The notes under the pieces: generated by a model
What the model was told of the DNA's origin: nothing
The model's input: the letters and a program-made list of their open reading frames with translations, nothing else
Databases searched by the model: none
Part shown: positions 1,893 to 34,808 of the stretch, in pieces
Layout: every line of letters begins with the position of its first letter
How positions within the stretch are numbered: the stretch's first letter is position 1
Translations under genes and position numbers: made by a program
From: a virus
Reading direction: 5' to 3' (one strand)
Length of the DNA stretch: 64,000 bases
IMG/VR virus record: IMGVR_UViG_3300042458_002038
Coordinates: 1-64,000 of that record

Positions 1893-2656
1893 ATATAATG
1901 AGATTTGTATAATTTTGATTTAAATGGAACGCCTTTAATGGGAAGATACTCTAAAATATATTCTACGAATAATCTGCGAATCTTATATTCGGGTATCAGA
2001 ATATTTCTAGCAAAATCACATAATGATGAATAACTGCCATTATTAAATTGAATCCAATATGATTTTGCTAATAACTGATTTGTTTCTTTTCTGCTTTTTA
2101 AGGTTTCTCTCCTTAGCTCACGAGCAATTTGTTTTTTATTTTGACGCGGCCTTAAATTTTTTGCTCGTGATGGGCGAGGTTTTCGTTTAAAAACTATCCA
2201 TTTGTTGCGGCCTTTAATCCATCCTTCGGGAATCGGCAATGTTTTATCAATGCATCTACTTTCCTTGAGATCAATATTTGAAATCCAATGCTTTCCAAAT
2301 TGCGAATTTCGTTCGCCTTTTTGAGTAATCTTGTTATTCCGTGAAATATATTTAGCACATTCTTTGCGAGCCCATTCATACATCCGACCAGATTTAATAC
2401 ATGGGCGATCTGAATTTTTAGAAGGTTTCATTTGCATTGCCCAAATAGCATGAGCATTCTCAGCGCATCTATTAAATCTCGCAAGAAGTAAATGGGCTAT
2501 GTAATGTTCACGACCGGTTAATGCAACCTTATTTGTCTTATCATCAGATCCTCCTAGTGATGAAGGAATTATATGATGATTTTCTTTATATCCGGAAAGT
2601 ATAGGATTTGTTTTCCTATACTGAATAAGTTGATTGTAAATTCGTTCATAGTCCAT
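1868..2656 (-). CDS. HNH homing endonuclease (Mob-like)
   Basis: ENHHIIPSSLGGSDD..N...LT.REHYIAHLLL HNH motif; AT-rich; late promoter TATAAATA at 2665-2672. Confidence 0.88.
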   Translation of the reverse strand: MDYERIYNQLIQYRKTNPILSGYKENHHIIPSSLGGSDDKTNKVALTGREHYIAHLLLARFNRCAENAHAIWAMQMKPSKNSDRPCIKSGRMYEWARKECAKYISRNNKITQKGERNSQFGKHWISNIDLKESRCIDKTLPIPEGWIKGRNKWIVFKRKPRPSRAKNLRPRQNKKQIARELRRETLKSRKETNQLLAKSYWIQFNNGSYSSLCDFARNILIPEYKIRRLFVEYILEYLPIKGVPFKSKLYKSHYMDVDLVKN

Positions 2657-2678
2657 TATAAAACTATTTATACAAATT

Positions 2679-2758
2679 ACGAACCTGTGAACCGGAGCAC
2701 CCTATTAAAGGTGACTTCTGTTTAGCAAACAGATACATTGCCACTCTGTCACATCTCC
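2679..2758 (-). pseudogene. 3'-truncated tRNA-Ser(GCT)
   Basis: GGAGATG 5' acceptor strand, TCTGT-TTGCTAA-ACAGA arm, long V-arm, GGTTCG, then no 3' T-stem or acceptor strand before the endonuclease cassette. Confidence 0.7.
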
Positions 2759-2764
2759 GTAAAT

Positions 2765-2840
2765 TGGTCTCCTACCAAGGAATCGAACCTTGCTCATCTT
2801 AGCCCCAAACTAAGCGCCTACCCAGCCTTGCCCGTAGAAG
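2765..2840 (-). tRNA. tRNA-Pro(TGG)
   Basis: CTTCTAC/GTAGGAG acceptor, CTTAG-TTTGGGG-CTAAG arm, CCA end; weak D-arm. Confidence 0.8.
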
Positions 2841-2933
2841 ATATTAAAATTTAGAGGAAGCCCGTAACCTCTGTATGGCTTTTTATGAACAGCTTTAACA
2901 AGCATACAACCACGGCAATCCGAAGACAGGAAC

Positions 2934-3713
2934 TTAATCCACACCGTGAGCATCGCTACTGTTCCTGAGTGCAGTTGCAAAATTAATCATTTTTGAAATA
3001 CTATACCATGATAATTGAGTTTTATCTAAAATGAAAACTTTAATTGAATTTTGTATTTCAACCAACTCAATTTTTGTTATATCTGAAAACCCCATAGCTG
3101 GATTTACATTATTAATTAAAAAATCATTTTTTGGATCAAGATATACATCATATTCAGGTAGATAAAAATCAGGAGTATATTTTCTGTTTTTTCCATTAGG
3201 ATCAGTATATTCAAATGATTTTGGTTTTTCCCATATGATATTATTTTCATCTAATGAAATTGCTACCTTTAATTCGTAGCCTGAGCCTAATTTAACATCT
3301 TTATATTCAATACGGTTATTGATAAATTTACCTCCAATTCCACGACGTTTTGCGTGATCGGATTGAGATTTTCTCATTTCATCAGTCCAAATGCATTTAC
3401 CGCATTTTTCACTTAATTTATTACGTGTTTCTTCGGAAATTATTGGCTTAGGTAAACCTAAACGTTTAGCTTTAGTATGTTGATTTTGTGGCCCTAAACC
3501 AACTATGGGTTGTCTTACATAACCTTGTAAGCAAGCATTATAATGAGTATTATAATTTGAAACATTAAATTCCTTTCCGCAGTTTTCACACTCCTTTTTT
3601 GGCATATGTTTTTGAATTATTATTCCATCAATACAACGTGTAATATGTTTGTTAAAATTGCTTAATGAAATGTGTTTCTTACATTGTGGGCATTCTTTTG
3701 TAATACGTTGCAT
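2934..3713 (-). CDS. putative homing endonuclease, zinc fingers plus PD-(D/E)XK (TnsA-N-like) domain
   Basis: Two CxxC..H motifs, NUMOD3-like segment, YTPDFYLPEYDVYLDPK motif; late promoter at 3719-3726. Confidence 0.8.
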   Translation of the reverse strand: MQRITKECPQCKKHISLSNFNKHITRCIDGIIIQKHMPKKECENCGKEFNVSNYNTHYNACLQGYVRQPIVGLGPQNQHTKAKRLGLPKPIISEETRNKLSEKCGKCIWTDEMRKSQSDHAKRRGIGGKFINNRIEYKDVKLGSGYELKVAISLDENNIIWEKPKSFEYTDPNGKNRKYTPDFYLPEYDVYLDPKNDFLINNVNPAMGFSDITKIELVEIQNSIKVFILDKTQLSWYSISKMINFATALRNSSDAHGVD

Positions 3714-3728
3714 AATTGTATTTATACA

Positions 3729-3760
3729 AAAGCACCCGCTTTATCACTAAGCTACATCTT
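3729..3760 (-). pseudogene. tRNA 5'-half remnant
   Basis: GATGTA-GCTT-AGTGATA-AAGC-G-GGTGC resembles a D-arm and anticodon stem start, broken at the endonuclease promoter. Confidence 0.4.
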
Positions 3761-3774
3761 TTTTTATAAAGTTT

Positions 3775-3867
3775 TGGTACTAGTGGTGGGGGTCGAACCC
3801 ACATACCGGTCTAGCCGGATTTTACGCCCTTATAAAGAACGGCCTTTACCATTCAGGTCACACTAGC
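3775..3867 (-). tRNA. tRNA with TAT anticodon (Ile) and long variable arm
   Basis: GCTAGTG/CACTAGT-A-CCA, CGTTC-TTTATAA-GGGCG, V-arm CCGG-CTAGA-CCGG, GGTTCGAC T-loop. Confidence 0.82.
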
Positions 3868-3871
3868 ATTA

Positions 3872-3903
3872 TCCAATCCGCTCTTCCGATGAGCTACAGG
3901 AGG
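3872..3903 (-). pseudogene. tRNA 5'-half remnant
   Basis: CCTCCTG-TA-GCTC-ATCGGAA-GAGC-G, no matching 3' half. Confidence 0.45.
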
Positions 3904-4097
3904 TTTTGAAAATTTGTGAGTTGCGCATTGGTGTGCGCTAAGGGACTCACGGCTCCATATTTAAACTTACTGTCATTGCATCTCTTTTCAGATCCAAGCC
4001 GTTCAACCACGGTCGTTACCTTGTTTGTAGCACAAGGCGCGCATTGAGATTTTGAAAAATTGTTGGGCAACGTGTTGTTGCCGTTTGTTATGCGATT

Positions 4098-4126
4098 ATT
4101 ATAATCTAAAAATTGAGATTTGTAAA
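4098..4126 (-). promoter_or_regulatory. sigma70-type promoter of tRNA operon
   Basis: TTTACA-N17-TATAAT. Confidence 0.75.
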
Positions 4127-4369
4127 GGAGTTTTTGTCTAAAATGTAAAAATAAAAAACCTTTGTTCCGTTTCCAGAACAAAGGTAAGTGTTTTAAATTT
4201 ACAGTGTCTGGATTCTATGCAGGCGGATATCCCTTTGATATAATACTGCAGCGGAACGGCGCAGGTCCTGCGAGCTGCTCGTTTGCTGTATTATTATGTT
4301 TGTCCTGTACCATACGCTTTATTTATATAAGTTGTTGTGCGTTTAAAGAAAAATATTACACCTTTACAA

Positions 4370-4711
4370 TTAAATTTGATCTCTTACATCACTTTCTCCG
4401 CCTGCGGTCCAATCCCACATAGTGCCAAGATGACGAACAGATGCGCCTTCCTCGGTGTGTTTCCACTTGTCTAACCATTTTTGCAACTTAGGGCTGTCAC
4501 CTTTGAATGTTACATACGCGGCTTTATCAAAGCGGTTATACCGACTGCTAACAAATTTAAAGCCGTTGGCTGTACCAAGCTTTTTTGCTTTGGCAATAAT
4601 ACCTTTCTCTTCATGCGCATAGCCAAGAAAAGGAACAGTCAATGTAACCGGTTTTCCTTCTGTTAGCATAGTACGATATGCATCGGCTGCAGTTGAGATA
4701 TTATTGTTCAT
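4370..4711 (-). CDS. putative internal head protein (paralog family)
   Basis: N-terminal TAADAYRTMLTE leader; domain shared with the 4716 and 5460 ORFs. Confidence 0.6.
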   Translation of the reverse strand: MNNNISTAADAYRTMLTEGKPVTLTVPFLGYAHEEKGIIAKAKKLGTANGFKFVSSRYNRFDKAAYVTFKGDSPKLQKWLDKWKHTEEGASVRHLGTMWDWTAGGESDVRDQI

Positions 4712-4715
4712 ATTT

Positions 4716-5453
4716 TTATACTTTTGCAGCAACAGTTAGTGCCTTTGCAATCTCTTTAAATTCGCTCTCGGATGCAGAGATATAAGCATTTCCACTATAG
4801 CTTTTCCATACCGACCAAGGGACTGTACCATCGGATGTATTAAGATTACCAGGATTCAGCTGCATGAATACTTTTTTACCACTAGAAATAAAAGTAAGGC
4901 AACCATCTCCAACATAAATTACGTCATTAACTGGTTGTCCGTTTACATTAGCCGCCTTTGAATGGTCAACTTTTAGACCGCCGTCAATCATTGGCTTGCC
5001 AACTCGTTTTGCGTTTGCAGCTAAAAATTTAGCGTAGTTTTGCTTCTTATCTTTTGAATGCGAAAACTCATCTTCTTCAGCTTCATTTAAAGCCGATTCA
5101 GTTGCATCTACGCTTTCGCTATAATCATTAACAATTTCTTCTTCGCTGTCGTCAGTGCGCATCCACTTGTTGACCCATTTAGCTAACTTGCTGCTGTCAC
5201 CTTTGATTGTGACATATACTGCTTCATCATAGCGGTCATATTCTCCACCATGAACGGTGAAGCCATTCTTAGAGCCAATCTCTTTAGCTTGAGCAAGAAC
5301 TTTTTTTTCATTTGTGCCAGGAAATGGAATACTTAGAGTAACCATCTTTCCTTCGTTTAGCGAAACGTCTTCAAGTGATGAGTATGTTTGTTCGGCTAAC
5401 ATTGCACGGTATGCGTCAGCTGCTGTTGGTGGGATTGAAATGTAGGTGTTCAT
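4716..5453 (-). CDS. putative internal head protein (paralog family)
   Basis: ISIPPTAADAYRAMLAEQ leader, LNE sites. Confidence 0.6.
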   Translation of the reverse strand: MNTYISIPPTAADAYRAMLAEQTYSSLEDVSLNEGKMVTLSIPFPGTNEKKVLAQAKEIGSKNGFTVHGGEYDRYDEAVYVTIKGDSSKLAKWVNKWMRTDDSEEEIVNDYSESVDATESALNEAEEDEFSHSKDKKQNYAKFLAANAKRVGKPMIDGGLKVDHSKAANVNGQPVNDVIYVGDGCLTFISSGKKVFMQLNPGNLNTSDGTVPWSVWKSYSGNAYISASESEFKEIAKALTVAAKV

Positions 5454-5459
5454 AAATTA

Positions 5460-6026
5460 TTAGTTACTCTTTACGCTCATACCCTTCATAATTTCTTTGA
5501 TTTGTTCAAAGTTTGCAAGGCGCGCAAGAACATGTACAATGTAATCAACTTTATTGTCAGGAATTTTTTTAATGACTGCCTTCAATTGCTTAAGCTTAAC
5601 TTTAGGAGGAGTTGATGCAAACCCATAATCAGGTGCTTCGATTTCTTCAGCTATAGAGGAATCATATGATTCGCTATAGTCATTTAAAATTTCTTCGTCA
5701 CTGTCGTCAGTACGCATCCACATATTAACAAATTTAGCTAACTTGCTAAGATCGCCTTTAAGTTCAATATCAACAGTTTTGTCATAACGGTTGTATTCAC
5801 CACCAAGAACAGTAAAGCCATGAGTCTTACCGAGAGTTTTAGCCTGAGCCATAATTTTATCTTCGTTTGACCCAGGAAATGGAACAGTCAATGTGACTAT
5901 CTTTGCTTCATCAAGTTGAGATACATTTTCAGCTGCAGCTTCTTCACGTGAAGCGTATGTTTGTTCGGCTAACATTGCACGATACGCATCAGCTGCTGTT
6001 GGTGGGATTGAGATGTGGTTATTCAT
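5460..6026 (-). CDS. putative internal head protein (paralog family)
   Basis: Same leader; late promoter at 6038-6045. Confidence 0.6.
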   Translation of the reverse strand: MNNHISIPPTAADAYRAMLAEQTYASREEAAAENVSQLDEAKIVTLTVPFPGSNEDKIMAQAKTLGKTHGFTVLGGEYNRYDKTVDIELKGDLSKLAKFVNMWMRTDDSDEEILNDYSESYDSSIAEEIEAPDYGFASTPPKVKLKQLKAVIKKIPDNKVDYIVHVLARLANFEQIKEIMKGMSVKSN

Positions 6027-6040
6027 AGATTGTAGTTTAT

Positions 6041-6451
6041 TTATAAGTAAATTTTATTGGGCTCGCTTGAAATAAGAGCTGGTGCAGTTAGTTTACTGTT
6101 ATTAGAATTTACAACAAAATAATTTCCTTTATTGTCAACATCCACTTCAGCCAGTCCAGCATCAGCAAGATCCTCACCAGTTGCAACATTTACGCTATAC
6201 CATTTTTGTACACCAAGTGTAGCTAGTTTGCCAGAGTTGCCAATAAGCTTGTATGGGCTAACCTTATATAGTTGGTCGTCATCTGGAAAGTATACATAAC
6301 CTGCTGCAATGATTTGTGCTTTAATTGCAGCTTCGTTGAGTTGAAGAGTACTTTCAACAGTAACTTCTTCAAGAGAAGCGTATGTTTGTTCATCTAACAT
6401 CGCACGATATGCGTCGGCTGCTGTTGGTGGGATTGAAATATTTGGATTCAT
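6041..6451 (-). CDS. putative internal head protein (paralog family)
   Basis: Same leader, different body; late promoter at 6456-6463. Confidence 0.6.
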   Translation of the reverse strand: MNPNISIPPTAADAYRAMLDEQTYASLEEVTVESTLQLNEAAIKAQIIAAGYVYFPDDDQLYKVSPYKLIGNSGKLATLGVQKWYSVNVATGEDLADAGLAEVDVDNKGNYFVVNSNNSKLTAPALISSEPNKIYL

Positions 6452-29406: not shown

Positions 29407-30807
29407 TTAGATTTTAAAATCGTCAAACTTATTACTTCGTGCTGCTCCGCTTCGCCCTGCAGCAAAAGGAGTTTGTGGAGCAGATTGCGAAGAGTCATCA
29501 CTCATAATATTTGCGGTTGGATCGCTAACATCATACAGTCTCATCTTTGCAAGATCGATGCCAATTGTGAATCGTTTATTAGTTGATGAATCATTGTAAC
29601 GATTCTTAAGTTGTTTGACCATAATTTGATTCATCTTGTCAAGTTGTTCTGTACGAATAAATGCAATCATCAAGTCAGCGGTTGCAGGTAGTCCAAAACT
29701 TTCGCTGGTATCCGTAATTTCAATATCCGACGATTGATATCCCGATCGTGTAACTTGAGTTGCACTCCAAATGGGTACATTAAATTCAACAGCCAATCCG
29801 CGAATCTCTTCGGCAATACTTTTAATAAGACTATATGTATTGATGCTTCCGCTCAATCCTTTCATACGGCTGCTCGCGCAAATGTTTAGATAGTCAATAT
29901 AAATGATGTCTGGCTCAAACTTCTTTTTTAATTTTAGTTCAAGCAACAATGCGCGGAAGTGACCGACATGTGCACTCGCAGTTGGATATTCCTTAACAAC
30001 AAGTTTGCCTTTGGTTTTATCACTGATACCTTTAACCTTATTATTGAATGATGCTTTAGTCAAGTCCTTCAACTGATCAATACGCACATCGAATAGATTG
30101 GCATCAATACGCTCAGCAATCTTTTCTTCGGCCATTTCCATTGTGATATACAATACGTTGCGCCCTTCTGATAGTGCTGCACTAGCCATATGGCACATAC
30201 CTAAACTTTTTCCGCAGGCTGTGCCAGCCAAGATGATGTTGAGCGTCTTGCGAGGAATACCTCCGCCTGTAATGGTGTTAAGCATTTCAAGGTCAAATGC
30301 AATTTTATCTTCGGTCTTGTGGTAAAAGTCATAGCGGCTTTCAGCATTCTCAAGATAGTCATGTCCAACATTTGTATCAAAGGTAACACTCAATGCATTG
30401 CTAAGAATGGTTGGAATTGCACCTTCGGTTTGATCTTTACTTTTGCCGTCAATAATACTGACAGCTTCCATAATTGCAAGATGCACAGCACGATCCTTAC
30501 ACCACTTTTCAGTGTTGTCCACCAGCCAATCATAGTCAACACTTGCAGGACTATCAATATCACGAATGCTACTCAACACTTCATGATGGTCATTGCGATT
30601 AATGTAATCGCTATTTTGAAACTCAATGTCTAGTACGCTGCTAGTTGGCAGCTTGTTGTACTTACTGATAAATGACAAGATCAGCTCATACAATACTTTG
30701 TGCTGCCCTTCAAAGTATTCGGGTTTTAAATGAGGAAGCGCTTTGCGCGTAAACATTTCATTTTGTATCAGGTTTTTAATGATTATTTCCTCAAGATTCT
30801 TTTGCAT
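29407..30807 (-). CDS. gp41: replicative DNA helicase
   Basis: AGTACGKSL, TMEMAEEKIAERIDANL, KEYPTASAH, IDYLNIC, SATQ.TRSG, DTSESFGLPATAD, QLKNRY. Confidence 0.95.
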   Translation of the reverse strand: MQKNLEEIIIKNLIQNEMFTRKALPHLKPEYFEGQHKVLYELILSFISKYNKLPTSSVLDIEFQNSDYINRNDHHEVLSSIRDIDSPASVDYDWLVDNTEKWCKDRAVHLAIMEAVSIIDGKSKDQTEGAIPTILSNALSVTFDTNVGHDYLENAESRYDFYHKTEDKIAFDLEMLNTITGGGIPRKTLNIILAGTACGKSLGMCHMASAALSEGRNVLYITMEMAEEKIAERIDANLFDVRIDQLKDLTKASFNNKVKGISDKTKGKLVVKEYPTASAHVGHFRALLLELKLKKKFEPDIIYIDYLNICASSRMKGLSGSINTYSLIKSIAEEIRGLAVEFNVPIWSATQVTRSGYQSSDIEITDTSESFGLPATADLMIAFIRTEQLDKMNQIMVKQLKNRYNDSSTNKRFTIGIDLAKMRLYDVSDPTANIMSDDSSQSAPQTPFAAGRSGAARSNKFDDFKI

Positions 30808-31099
30808 CGTTGTTTCCAATTTTAAATTCGCTTTGTGATAATAGATGATTTAGTAAGTCTCCAATATGATTCTTAAAGTCAGTGTCTTTGTCTAGAGATT
30901 CCTTAAGCAGCCCTTCTGGAGTGCTTTCAATCTTATAGACAAATGAAACCTTCAAGACATCATTTTCTTTGTCCTCAGTAAGGCGGGTGCGTCCATATGT
31001 ATAGATCACACCCGCCCAACGTCCAGACAATAATTTTATCGAGTATTGATCGCTATGTAAATCATTTTCGACAAAAATATAGTCTTTTTTCTCAGTCAT
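30791..31099 (-). CDS. gp40-like protein
   Basis: Size and position between uvsX and gp41 as in T4. Confidence 0.55.
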   Translation of the reverse strand: MTEKKDYIFVENDLHSDQYSIKLLSGRWAGVIYTYGRTRLTEDKENDVLKVSFVYKIESTPEGLLKESLDKDTDFKNHIGDLLNHLLSQSEFKIGNNDAKES

Positions 31100-31670
31100 C
31101 TGTTTGTTCTTCAGGCGATTCTTCAAAGGTGATTGCACTCTCAGGAACACGATCAAGATTAACTTCAACGTCATTCATCATGTCGCGCAGGCCGATGGTA
31201 TACTTGTTTTTGAGATATTCCGCAAAGTCAGTATTCTTAAATACAGTCTCCCAGAATTCTTTAGTCATGGTTTGAGCAGCACGCAGGTTGCCAGTCAACT
31301 CAACATCCTTTGCAATGTCCCATGCTTGGTACCAACCATTCTTTGGCTTGCGAACATAGCCACCAAGAATAGCAATATCCAATAGGCCGCTCCATTTTTG
31401 AACGCCACCTTCCCAGCTTACGCTGATTGGAATTTTGCTTTTTTCTTTAACAAAGCGACTCTTTTCTACATTGATTACAAAGTGATAACCTTGAATTTCA
31501 GTACCATCTTTATCTTGTTGGCGACCAATAATCCAAACATTGTCCGCACTATACATGATGCCTGTGTTATGCGTCACAACACCATTCTTAAGAATATAGT
31601 GTTCAGCATCTTTAACGCTAAGGTCATATACTTTTTGCCGCCCTATTGATTTAATTTCTTTAATTTTCAT
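31092..31670 (-). CDS. uvsX: split intein C-fragment (35 aa) fused to UvsX C-extein
   Basis: MKIKEIKSIG..VYDLSV..Y..NGVVTHN|TGIMYSADN..IGRQQDK..VEKSRFVKEKSKIP. Confidence 0.92.
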   Translation of the reverse strand: MKIKEIKSIGRQKVYDLSVKDAEHYILKNGVVTHNTGIMYSADNVWIIGRQQDKDGTEIQGYHFVINVEKSRFVKEKSKIPISVSWEGGVQKWSGLLDIAILGGYVRKPKNGWYQAWDIAKDVELTGNLRAAQTMTKEFWETVFKNTDFAEYLKNKYTIGLRDMMNDVEVNLDRVPESAITFEESPEEQTDD

Positions 31671-31679
31671 TATGTTATA

Positions 31680-32558
31680 TTATAATATATTTTCTTCTGT
31701 TTGTAAAGGTCTTTTTTTACATTTATCGCCATGCCATCTTTTAAAATTTGATGTGTCTATATCTCTATTGCAATGCTTGCATGTTTGCATTTGAAGACCT
31801 TGAGTAATTACTTTATAACGATATGGGTTAATCCATTCATCGGAATCTAGCTGTATTGCTTCATGTTTACTGACACGGATATTTTCACCAGTGATAACAT
31901 TTTTTAATGTTACAAGATCAGATCTACCTATTTTAGCTTTCCATTCTGGAGTGCGGTTTATTTTAGCTACATTTTCTCTAAACCATTCAATATCTTCAGG
32001 CTTTCTTTTATTGCCTTTATTTTTATCTCCAATAATTTTTCTAGTTTCTTCAGTATGGGTTTTTCCATAAAAACCGTTATCTTTACCAGAACGAATGATT
32101 TTTTGTTTGGTTTCTTCTGATAATTTATTGCCAAACGTCACACCAACATATTCACCATTTAATACTGATGAGTCATCTCTGGAAAGTCTAACAATCTTTC
32201 CAGTTTCTTTGTTTTTATATGTAGCATAATTTGGATTATGAAATGTATTTTCCATTGCTATAGATTTATTAAAATATTCCGGTGATGACACTGCAGATAC
32301 TTTTATTTGTTCTTCCGCTTCACGCTGAAGAACTTTTTCATAATCTTCAGACGAATATAAAATTTCTATTTCACATATATCAGATTGCACCATCTCTTTA
32401 TAGTTTTCCCATGTTGAAGATCCATAATAAGGTTTATTACGGCCGTCATATATTATGCCATTCTTAAAAGAGCAATTTGACTTTGATCCAATATAAAGGT
32501 ATGGTAAAATACCAGCAACTTTGCGTTTACTAAATGTTATTTTATATACTAAGTTCAT
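31680..32558 (-). CDS. GIY-YIG/NUMOD3 homing endonuclease between uvsX halves
   Basis: LVY..YLYIGSK..YYGSS..YFN; FYGKTHTEETR; C-terminal CKHC..RWH..C. Confidence 0.85.
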   Translation of the reverse strand: MNLVYKITFSKRKVAGILPYLYIGSKSNCSFKNGIIYDGRNKPYYGSSTWENYKEMVQSDICEIEILYSSEDYEKVLQREAEEQIKVSAVSSPEYFNKSIAMENTFHNPNYATYKNKETGKIVRLSRDDSSVLNGEYVGVTFGNKLSEETKQKIIRSGKDNGFYGKTHTEETRKIIGDKNKGNKRKPEDIEWFRENVAKINRTPEWKAKIGRSDLVTLKNVITGENIRVSKHEAIQLDSDEWINPYRYKVITQGLQMQTCKHCNRDIDTSNFKRWHGDKCKKRPLQTEENIL

Positions 32559-32595
32559 CGGTTGTATGGGTTTATTTATACAACCGATGAACTTA
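32550..32595 (-). promoter_or_regulatory. late promoter inside a hairpin that sequesters the endonuclease start codon
   Basis: 18-bp perfect stem TAAGTTCATCGGTTGTAT/ATACAACCGATGAACTTA with TATAAATA at 32573-32580. Confidence 0.8.
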
Positions 32596-32599
32596 AGAA

Positions 32600-33514
32600 T
32601 CAGATCAATACTTTACAATCTTGTCCAACCGTTAGGTCTTTTGCTTCTACCCAAAGGTCATCAATCATGAATTTGTGTTTATCACTGCAAACAATGGTGT
32701 GGCCATCCTCAAATGTAACTTCATAACATTCCGGTTCGCCTTCATCGAGCGTGTCTGGATTCCAAACAGCAGTAACTTCTTTAGGGCCATCTAATGTTTG
32801 AACATTATCACCAGCAATAAAGTCTTCAACCGGTTTAGTTGTTCCATCAGGCAGAGTAATAAGAGTTCCCGCAGCAACACAACCTCCACTAACAATAGCT
32901 TTTGGGAACAATCCAATTTCTTGATAGGTATGGTTGATTGCAAGCAAGCAAATGTTTTTCATTGTAAGGTATGGCGTAACCATACGGAACAATCCTTTAA
33001 GCGCTTTAGCACGAGTCATGTCGGCCACGCTCTTTTCATTCATTGCATCTTCCAATTCTTTTTTGGACGCAAGGTTACCAACACTATCAATAACAATAAT
33101 TACTTTATCCTTGCGCTCCATCTGCTCAAGTTGATTCACAATATCAAACTTGAGTTCTTCAATATTTTTAATGGGAATATGCAATACTCGGTTGGTATCA
33201 ATACCAAAGCTTTCAAAGTATTGCTGAGGACTACCAAATTCACTATCATAAAACATAAGACAAGCATCTTTATGTTTCTTAAGATATGCACCGGCCATAA
33301 GCAATGCAAAGCTAGTCTTAAAGTGCTTTGATGGACCAGCAAGAACGGTAAGGCCGCTGGTCAATCCACCGTCAATACTGCCACTTAATGCGACATTGAC
33401 CATTGGTACACTTGTGGAGGTGATGTCTTTTTCAGCATAAAAATCGCTGTCAGCCAAGACGTCGGCTTCTTTAATTCGGCAATTCTTTTTTAGTTTTTCT
33501 AGTACAGATGACAT
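32600..33514 (-). CDS. uvsX: UvsX (RecA-like) N-extein fused to split intein N-fragment (93 aa)
   Basis: AGPSKHFKTSF, FYDSEFG, IDSVGNLASKKE, NHTY..VSGG|CVAAGTLI..CSDKHKF..WVEAKDL. Confidence 0.93.
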   Translation of the reverse strand: MSSVLEKLKKNCRIKEADVLADSDFYAEKDITSTSVPMVNVALSGSIDGGLTSGLTVLAGPSKHFKTSFALLMAGAYLKKHKDACLMFYDSEFGSPQQYFESFGIDTNRVLHIPIKNIEELKFDIVNQLEQMERKDKVIIVIDSVGNLASKKELEDAMNEKSVADMTRAKALKGLFRMVTPYLTMKNICLLAINHTYQEIGLFPKAIVSGGCVAAGTLITLPDGTTKPVEDFIAGDNVQTLDGPKEVTAVWNPDTLDEGEPECYEVTFEDGHTIVCSDKHKFMIDDLWVEAKDLTVGQDCKVLI

Positions 33515-33536
33515 ATATTATTTCGTTGAGATATTA

Positions 33537-34808
33537 TTATAACAGGTTTTTCTTGGAATGTAAACTAAAAAATTCATCAAGTTCATGAGAATTATTTAGC
33601 AGCACACGTGTAGGATATTCAACCGTCTTATTCTTATTGCTTTGTTTGGTATAGTTACTTTCACTCCAAGTAACATCGCCATCAAGATACTTTACTACAT
33701 TAAGCATCATATCACGAGCTGTACTTACAGGTACATTTTGGCAGATGTGATTAATCTTGGTTTTAAGCGGGTGCAATGATGCAAGATTAAAGTCTTCAGG
33801 CATCTTCATAACACGGAGACAGTCACGTACAGTTGGAAAGCTTTGAGTAAATGGATTAATCATCCAGAATGGCAATGCTCCAATCAGACTAGGAATAATA
33901 CCTTTGACCATAGTAATGCCATGCGCCCAGTAACCCATACCTTTTGCACGTTTAGCGGCCATATCCCGAGCACGTCCTGCAGTTTTAGTATAACCATTCG
34001 CATCCATCCATTCCGATACAACTGTAAGATTATCACCTAAGCCGCCGTCGGCCCAGACAATAAGATTCTGTGTATCATCCAGGGTGTCATATAGTTCTTT
34101 AATATCTTTAGTACCAGTCTTGTGCATGGCGTATGCAGCCCAACCATTGGTATTGGGATCGTCTTCATTGCAAGAGATATTCATTGGATCACCATCAGCA
34201 TATGCCATATTAAAGATGTTTTCAATGGGTTCTCCAGGAACATTAAACCAACTAAATAACGGAGCAGATGTACTCTTAGTAAAGAAGTAGAATGTGCGGC
34301 CGCGCTTTTGAGACAGGCCGTGAAGGCGGCTTTCAGTATAATACAAGTTTAAGCTATACCCATACTTTTCGCCGATAGCAAACAAACGGTCTGCGACTTT
34401 TTTACCCATGTTGCTGTATAAACGTGGAGCATTCTCGCCCCAAAATACTTTAGGACCTACTTTATCAAGTACATATTCAGCAGTGGTATACAACCATTCA
34501 TTAACTGCACTATCTGCACTGCTTGCAGTGCTAAGGCTGCTCAAACCAGCACAAGGGCAGGTGGAATTTACAACATCAACCGATTCTGGTACATAATCAG
34601 GCTGTTTGTCAAGGTGAATATAGTCACCAGTCCATCCTTTTGTGTTGCGGATGTATTGAATGTAGTGATCATCATTGCTTGCAAAGGGACTATATGATAA
34701 TACGTATTCTGGAAGTTGTCCATCTAGTGCTTCCATGACTCCAAGTGATTCACCGCCAATAAGCGGTACGATTGATGCGTATGTGTATTTCTTTTGTGCG
34801 TTCTCCAT
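33537..34808 (-). CDS. DNA cytosine-C5 methyltransferase-like protein
   Basis: TCPCAGLS (motif IV), WGENAP (VI), SQKRGRTF (VIII), TVRDCLRVM..PEDF, CQNVP (X); motif I degenerate (PLIGG). Confidence 0.75.
   Translation of the reverse strand: MENAQKKYTYASIVPLIGGESLGVMEALDGQLPEYVLSYSPFASNDDHYIQYIRNTKGWTGDYIHLDKQPDYVPESVDVVNSTCPCAGLSSLSTASSADSAVNEWLYTTAEYVLDKVGPKVFWGENAPRLYSNMGKKVADRLFAIGEKYGYSLNLYYTESRLHGLSQKRGRTFYFFTKSTSAPLFSWFNVPGEPIENIFNMAYADGDPMNISCNEDDPNTNGWAAYAMHKTGTKDIKELYDTLDDTQNLIVWADGGLGDNLTVVSEWMDANGYTKTAGRARDMAAKRAKGMGYWAHGITMVKGIIPSLIGALPFWMINPFTQSFPTVRDCLRVMKMPEDFNLASLHPLKTKINHICQNVPVSTARDMMLNVVKYLDGDVTWSESNYTKQSNKNKTVEYPTRVLLNNSHELDEFFSLHSKKNLL

Follow-up and report, generated by a model that had tools for sequence, protein, structure and literature searches.

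A predicted split intein with a free-standing endonuclease gene divides uvsX in an uncultured freshwater T4-like phage

Anatomy of the divided uvsX locus

The stretch of DNA analysed here, hereafter the window, comprises 64,000 nucleotides (positions 1 to 64,000) of IMG/VR record IMGVR_UViG_3300042458_002038, a 73.7-kb viral record that is about 41% complete and contains a single RecA-family match. It derives from an uncultured freshwater T4-like phage, in which a mobile cassette breaks uvsX, a recombinase gene, into two separate genes, and its sequence was found again in lake-water metagenomes. The locus consists of three consecutive open reading frames (ORFs), all on the minus strand, at 32600-33514 (304 aa), 31680-32558 (292 aa) and 31092-31670 (192 aa). 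The first ORF begins with the N-terminal 211 aa of UvsX (N-extein; 32882-33514), running from Walker A to ...AIVSGG and matching Pfam RecA (E 6.9e-11), and continues into a 93-aa N-terminal intein half (IntN; 32603-32881, with its Cys1 at 32881-32879) that is closed by a TGA stop codon (32602-32600). The second ORF (31680-32558) encodes a free-standing homing endonuclease of 292 aa, assigned from NUMOD3, PHROGs matches and predicted fold. The third opens with a 35-aa C-terminal intein half (IntC; 31566-31670), containing blocks F and G and ending in VVTHN, which matches positions 122-155 of the 155 in Pfam Intein_splicing (E 1.9e-5, below cutoff); it then resumes UvsX with 157 aa starting at Thr+1 (C-extein, TGIMYSADN, 31092-31565 including the stop codon; Pfam T4_UVSX_C, E 9.5e-11). 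The spacers measure 41 nt between IntN and the endonuclease gene and 9 nt between the latter and IntC; the UvsX-C ORF thus begins 9 nt past the stop codon of the endonuclease gene. Its leader is A/T-rich, as at most genes here, and its start therefore requires no special coupling. An earlier note made from the letters alone, the original prediction, had described uvsX as fractured by IntN, endonuclease and IntC, and all its coordinates, motifs and extein lengths (211 + 157 aa) were correct.

Chain residues 4 to 186 (...GGG) of T4 UvsX (PDB 3IO5) align with the N ORF (E 9e-67), and the alignment picks up in the C ORF at residue 187 (TGPMYSAD...; E 1e-34), with no residue lost or duplicated at the junction, indicating that the arrangement is not due to chance. 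For comparison we used 80 IMG/VR loci with genes related to the N ORF. One of them, from a near-identical lake phage (L022), has an uninterrupted uvsX, whose products are 100% (N) and 97% (C) identical in amino acid sequence to the window exteins. In blastn comparisons with this and a second empty allele (L024), homology ended at 32883 and restarted at 31565, indicating that the whole cassette (31566-32881, minus strand) is an exact insertion of 1316 bp. Across the site L022 reads AIVSGG-TGIMYSADN, and the DNA of empty sites of this type is ...GTTAGCGGTGGA/ACTGGCATCATG... (here and below, a slash between residues or nucleotides marks the insertion point). Four synonymous differences separate the window from L022 within 12 nt around the junction, and the 25-30 nt or so beyond, on each side, are identical. 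The cassette is in frame and its removal restores a conserved host motif; the joined VSGG-TGIMYSADN that had been foreseen for the mature protein is what the empty allele reads and aligns with the 3IO5 junction, and the junction peptide expected after splicing is AIVSGGTGIMYSADNVWIIGR.

When the intact L022 protein was aligned with mycobacterial RecA, SGG/TGIMYSA fell on TGG/KALKFYAS, the RecA motif being TTGG/(K/N)ALKFYAS, a segment that we take to be the C-terminal edge, or end, of DNA-binding loop L2. In replication and recombination ATPases, inteins favour functional motifs that are conserved (PMC4760082), and an insertion at this RecA-type motif fits that preference.

The window is a metagenome-assembled viral contig, and such an arrangement might in principle reflect a chimeric contig or another assembly artefact. 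This explanation is, however, extremely improbable: independent lake metagenome runs contain 91-100% of the words sampled, the entire cassette is present, about 94% identical, on a 10.9-kb estuary contig belonging to another study, and the same architecture recurs in 14 IMG/VR relatives as well as in isolate genomes.

Conservation of the intein halves

IntN carries Cys1 right after ...SGG and a block B of C-S-D-K-H, and its net charge is -14 (20 D/E, 6 K/R); IntC (...VYDLSV...NGVVTHN/T) ends in His-Asn, followed by Thr+1, and has a net charge of +3. The marks from which an intein had been proposed, namely the VSGG/C1 junction, an acidic 93-aa IntN with S-D-K-H and a basic 35-aa IntC ending in VTHN/T, can thus all be read in the sequence. 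We gathered the intein halves occurring at the uvsX GG/T site from 66 loci, obtaining 36 distinct IntN and 32 distinct IntC sequences that are 44-90% identical to the halves of the window. Cys follows Gly-Gly in 36/36 IntN sequences, and block B conforms to S-x-x-H (S/T-x-x-H) in nearly all of them; likewise, 31/32 IntC sequences are HN-terminal, the +1 residue being Thr in 30 and Ser in two. The ratio of nonsynonymous to synonymous substitution rates (dN/dS) against close relatives was 0.06-0.09 for IntN and 0.02-0.06 for IntC, at synonymous divergences (dS) of 0.6-1.5, and for the exteins it was 0.03-0.16 against L011 and 0.01-0.05 against L012. The intein halves are, therefore, under strong purifying selection and as constrained as the exteins. 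From the conservation of the splicing residues together with the low dN/dS we strongly infer that the two products would be joined by protein trans-splicing.

T4-like phages do hold host genes that function in pieces with no intein, such as Aeh1 nrdA and phage 25 gp43, and trans-splicing of the window uvsX is a prediction. UvsX might accordingly be a gene in pieces that functions as a two-chain complex, like Aeh1 NrdA/mobE, with the intein halves serving as a non-covalent clamp or decaying. We regard this as unlikely, because residues needed only for the chemistry (Cys1, the terminal Asn, the penultimate His and the +1 Thr/Ser) are kept in essentially all distinct homologues despite their divergence, and dN/dS within the intein halves stays below 0.1, which argues for splicing over mere association.

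Another alternative is that the insertion inactivated a dispensable uvsX, whose pieces are now decaying, since in so incomplete a record a second recombinase could lie elsewhere. This has very little probability in our view. Both extein halves are intact and under the strong purifying selection described above, the uvsX ORFs contain neither frameshifts nor internal stops, and the same split form is shared by phages having as little as 32-68% N-extein identity with the window.

Among known inteins, the naturally split DnaE inteins offer parallels. IntC aligns end-to-end with that of Npu DnaE (4LX3_B; E 9e-4), with 14/34 (41%) identical residues, and the window intein shares with Npu and Ssp DnaE the canonical split position, an IntC of similar length (35 versus 36 aa) with F/G motifs VYD...NG...N, and the pairing of an acidic IntN with a basic IntC. 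The DnaE halves, however, lie at distant loci, have no endonuclease between them and use Cys at +1 instead of Thr; the penultimate IntC residue is Ser in Npu and His here. Identity with gp41-1 is low: IntN matches this intein (6QAZ) with a phmmer E of 0.005, block B aligning with C-S-E-E-H and Ser being present in both. VidaL (6VGV/6VGW) is split after beta-strand 2 and has an IntN of 16 aa (PMC13014065), unlike the canonically split intein of the window. Nearly all relatives of IntN in a large protein database are RecA-domain proteins of about 300 aa, and PHROGs holds a separate family for each uvsX half. The in-silico tests of the layout support a canonically split class-1 intein with Cys1 and Thr+1 around a free-standing endonuclease; a canonically split intein in this arrangement had already been put forward in the original prediction.

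The endonuclease gene and its expression

Pfam recognized in the endonuclease NUMOD3 alone, in two stretches (E 1.1e-9; feature at aa 143-174, 32037-32132, minus strand), and the protein matches PHROG 7504/314, annotated as 'homing endonuclease'. An AlphaFold (AF2) model built from 39 homologues had a predicted local distance difference test score of 87, and its first 101 residues (32256-32558), the predicted nuclease domain, superimposed on the catalytic domain of I-TevI (1LN0) with a Z of 7.6 and a root-mean-square deviation of 3.0 Å over 84/94 residues (VIA-align), the next unrelated structure reaching a Z of 3.4. Foldseek also ranked 1LN0 at the top, but with an E of 1.0 (all Foldseek E-values were at least 1), so the support from fold is moderate, and phmmer of the endonuclease against PDB sequences returned nothing meaningful. 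Invariant in the 39 homologues are Y5, Y22-I-G24, E80 and N97, with an E-to-N spacing of 17. With moderate confidence, these model-based comparisons point to a GIY-YIG-like enzyme. A C-terminal DNA-binding module with a Cys/His cluster occupies aa 158-281 (31716-32087, minus strand), and the window enzyme as a whole corresponds to a nuclease domain of the type found in phage Pm5461 joined to a C-terminal module of the type found in phages TG1 and EniLVp02. Three endonuclease homologues share 77-88% identity with the window enzyme. Relatives of this enzyme lie between the uvsX IntN and IntC in 48 of the 51 IMG/VR loci that encode one; the family is tied to the uvsX intein site.

A perfect 19-bp hairpin (32549-32596, minus strand; arms 32596-32578 and 32567-32549) follows directly after the IntN stop, with a minimum free energy of -26.8 kcal/mol (z -6.3; 0/200 shuffles fold as well), and its 3' arm holds the endonuclease ATG (32558-32556). 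At the junction of the 5' arm and the loop, 14 nt before this ATG, lies TATAAATA (32573-32580, minus strand), the T4-type late promoter box. This box occurs 19 times in the window versus 5.6 expected, 18 of the copies being on the minus (coding) strand, and most of those checked are located 6-19 nt ahead of a start codon. Control of an endonuclease by a hairpin together with a late promoter has been reported for I-TevI, segB and Aeh1 mobE (Edgell et al. 2010, PMC2988022), and a hairpin containing the box is found at 10 fractured-gene loci (Dassa et al. 2009, PMC2677866). Incidentally to this, a Shine-Dalgarno core (GGAG/GAGG/AGGA at -20 to -5) precedes only 2 of the 63 window ORFs of at least 120 aa. 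This T4-like phage thus makes hardly any use of Shine-Dalgarno sequences and its late leaders are very short, a hint that translation in its host starts independently of this element.

Metatranscriptome data yielded one 860-nt contig colinear with 31454-32282, a segment that covers part of the C-extein, all of IntC and part of the endonuclease gene. This bears on whether the halves might be joined at the RNA level instead of by protein splicing, through a group I intron with an endonuclease gene or translational bypass. Such introns are known (recA of Bacillus, phage 0305phi8-36; Dassa et al. 2009, PMC2677866), and an RNA-level junction is what the original prediction had named as speaking against a split intein. 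None was seen. An Rfam scan of 30500-34000 at E≤1 found no intron, giving only spurious miRNA/snoRNA matches on the hairpin; all intein blocks sit in in-frame flanking segments; and spacers of 41 and 9 nt are too short to leave room for an intron core. To a lesser degree, the colinear contig and the four runs compared, in which neither joints nor the empty allele were seen (the RNA run having no coverage at 32365-32808), point the same way. We therefore give RNA-level joining next to no credence.

Taken together, the locus very probably represents a composite selfish element in uvsX, made of a class-1 intein split at the canonical endonuclease position and of a free-standing GIY-YIG-type homing endonuclease gene between its halves. 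In such an element, early and middle transcripts would traverse all three ORFs and the two UvsX pieces would be translated separately. The acidic IntN and the basic IntC would then associate and fold as a Hint domain, and Cys1, the block-B His, the terminal His-Asn and Thr+1 would perform trans-splicing, turning ...AIVSGG and TGIMYSADN... into a UvsX of 368 aa. On read-through RNA, the hairpin would lock the endonuclease start codon, whereas late transcripts, beginning just past TATAAATA and lacking the 5' arm, would leave it free, so that the endonuclease would be made late. The enzyme would presumably cut the intein-less uvsX of co-infecting phages, and repair would copy the cassette into them (homing). 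Since homing needs UvsX, the element would reside in a gene required for its own spread.

Several observations weigh against this reading. The Pfam models Vint, Hint, Hint_2 and Intein_splicing reached only 17-25 bits, all under their curated cutoffs of 27-36, several of them matching the last 93 residues of the first ORF, and our literature search found no experimental splicing or cleavage for any uvsX cassette of this type. The RNA evidence is a single assembled contig, for which DNA carry-over is possible. Within the endonuclease, Pfam GIY-YIG (PF01541) and SegE_GIY-YIG gave no match even at E≤10, and only one member of the homologue alignment A3 matched them; the GIY-YIG label, which the original prediction had given from the letters alone, rests here on the predicted I-TevI-like fold and the conserved Y, Y-I-G, E and N, and not on this family. 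No Arg, the catalytic residue, is invariant among the 39 homologues, K26 being invariant instead. Finally, TATAAATA lies within 90 nt of the IntN stop in 17 of 37 distinct uvsX cassettes, so a late-promoter switch would not be universal.

Distribution and turnover of the cassette

GenBank phages yielded nothing matching the locus by megablast. A search of these phages with IntN alone recovered 25 uvsX records, corresponding to about 19 cultured phages, along with seven unrelated actinophage inteins. The 224 records that cover at least 80% of the N ORF do not represent the number of intein carriers: PHB13 and phiM12, for instance, have an intact uvsX with an over-extended tblastn alignment. Carriers infect Proteus (Pm5461, PM2), Yersinia (TG1), Escherichia (HY03, ELT1, BYEP01, SYGD1, RPN226), Salmonella (SEA1, CF-SP2, pSe_SNUABM_01), Shigella (SP21535), Klebsiella (Lion_ER11), Enterobacter (UFV01, EnC07), Pseudomonas (PspYZU05), Vibrio (VmeM-32, EniLVp02) and Shewanella (Thanatos-1). 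Their cassettes occupy the same GG/T site and are 52-57% (IntN) and 57-71% (IntC) identical to the window halves, with an endonuclease of the same family, 43-45% identical, in most; they differ in that the exteins are only 40-61% identical and the window IntN is 3-5 residues shorter. In the enterobacterial phages, IntC is 63-71% identical to that of the window although the exteins are only 40-55% identical; intein and extein have had discordant histories, which is what horizontal movement of the element would produce.

The intein had been presented as new, a claim that is not supported, given these 25 deposited records, the HintC domain annotated once and the PHROGs families for each half. The GenBank annotation of the two pieces reads 'RecA-like recombination protein' or 'hypothetical', the gene in between being labelled 'homing endonuclease', and HintC is noted only for the C half of VmeM-32; we found no paper describing a uvsX intein cassette of this type. 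The cassette is present, mostly unremarked, in the cultured phages, and this kind of fractured gene is already known, in agreement with the statement of the original prediction that phage genes of such layout exist. Dassa, London, Stoddard, Schueler-Furman and Pietrokovski (2009, PMC2677866) described split inteins of gp41-1 to gp41-9, NrdJ, NrdA, IMPDH, DnaE, ligase and terminase from GOS metagenomes. The window shares with those loci the order of host-N plus IntN, spacer, free-standing endonuclease and IntC plus host-C on one strand, the hairpin over the endonuclease start containing TATAAATA, and similar dimensions, with a spacer after IntN of 41 nt (27-51 there), an IntN of 93 aa (88-105) and an IntC of 35 aa (33-54); endonucleases there are GIY-YIG or Vsr-like (PMC2677866). 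Conversely, uvsX is there merely a neighbour of gp41 and here the host gene, the +1 residue of the window is Thr, and its endonuclease gene does not overlap the downstream ORF at its 3' end (9-nt gap). Aeh1 nrdA-mobE and phage 25 gp43-seg resemble the window in that an essential gene of a T4-like phage is split by a free-standing homing endonuclease gene under control of a hairpin and late promoter, but they have no intein halves and their pieces assemble non-covalently (PMC2988022).

What is new here is that the site is polymorphic among close relatives, some of which lack the insert, while others hold a different intein lineage or an exchanged endonuclease gene. In the set of 80 IMG/VR loci, the site is occupied by an intein in 14 and empty in 66. 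The most closely related loci with an intein (L011 and L043) have exteins 98-99% identical and an IntC 100% identical to those of the window, but their endonuclease is an unrelated 229-aa gene with an I-TevI-type DNA-binding domain (BLASTP against the window enzyme, E 1.5). Homology between the window and these loci breaks at 32572 and 31717, delimiting the exchanged segment (31718-32571, minus strand), and mismatches climb through the 3' part of the N-extein and IntN towards the endonuclease gene, with dS values of 0.24 (N-extein), 1.1 (IntN), 0 (IntC) and 0.07 (C-extein). This gradient is the signature of a recombination tract importing endonuclease and IntN from a diverged donor, and the window copy looks like the result of a recent swap of these two parts, in which IntC and the exteins stayed.

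Six further loci (L013 to L016, L021 and L036) have N-exteins 94-96% identical to that of the window but another intein lineage (IntN 53%, IntC 46% identical), seen for instance at L013:4001-6332, at the same uvsX GG/T site. The L013-type endonuclease is an HNH-type enzyme whose last 124 residues share 38% identity with the DNA-binding module of the window enzyme (E 7e-25); the sharing of this module by HNH and GIY-YIG-like enzymes fits a shuffling of nuclease domains on a common target-recognition domain. A single freshwater population thus contains, at the uvsX GG/T site, empty alleles, two intein lineages (46-53% identical) and at least three unrelated nuclease genes (GIY-YIG-like, HNH, and the 229-aa type, whose DNA-binding domain resembles that of I-TevI). 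One interpretation, to which we assign roughly even chances, is that endonuclease genes are exchanged within a resident split intein, whose halves form a stable landing pad and supply the homology arms.

Such a population offers a natural series for the homing cycle and for endonuclease turnover, from a site lacking the insert to two lineages of intein and three types of endonuclease. With this locus, uvsX, split at the end of its RecA-type DNA-pairing loop, joins the hosts of canonical split-intein fractured genes, an architecture described only from ocean metagenomes in the literature found. Because easily grown phages of Escherichia, Salmonella, Proteus and Yersinia also carry the cassette, genetic tests of splicing, of homing and of the hairpin/late-promoter switch are feasible in them. 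For protein engineering the intein is one more candidate Cys1/Thr+1 pair; its value as a tool in terms of speed and orthogonality, as envisaged originally, is speculation, and IntC is similar enough to that of Npu DnaE that the two may cross-react.

In two of the cultured phages the endonuclease gene is reduced. VmeM-32 (L005:3369-3770) retains an endonuclease ORF of 133 aa, with the nuclease domain only, and in TG1 (L002:3928-4935) about 400 nt past IntN are unannotated and the match is limited to residues 112-282 of the window enzyme, the nuclease domain being missing. Both genes look decayed and may represent late stages of the homing cycle.

A separate interruption was observed in a close relative, L017 (positions 2092-6089; IMGVR_UViG_3300042465_006921), and also in L018, where uvsX is in three pieces and the N-extein is 97% identical to that of the window. 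In L017 the first piece comprises UvsX residues 1-66, ending in ...GPSKHFK, followed by 12 residues (CLSGDTPISVYY) and a stop. The middle ORF, of 425 aa, carries a C-terminal EYNGTVWH motif, a putative signature by which it looks Vsr/DUF559-like, and the third starts with a 127-aa intein C-part ending in GIIHHN/T, continuing with UvsX residues 67-211 and a window-type IntN. Its layout would correspond to an intein that interrupts the Walker A loop and is atypically split, the IntN of 12 aa being shorter than those of natural atypically split inteins, which range from 15 to 37 aa (PMC13014065). This P-loop intein had no match among PDB sequences, VidaL included.

Downstream of uvsX, a 127-aa ORF (30791-31174, minus strand) overlaps the end of the gene by 83 nt, and an internal ATG in the region of the uvsX stop (ATGACTGA, M-T-E-K-K-D-Y) would shorten it and reduce the overlap to a few nt. 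Its sole match is PHROG 3998 (function unknown; E 6e-7). In T4-like phages gene 40 lies between uvsX and gene 41, and this ORF occupies that position.

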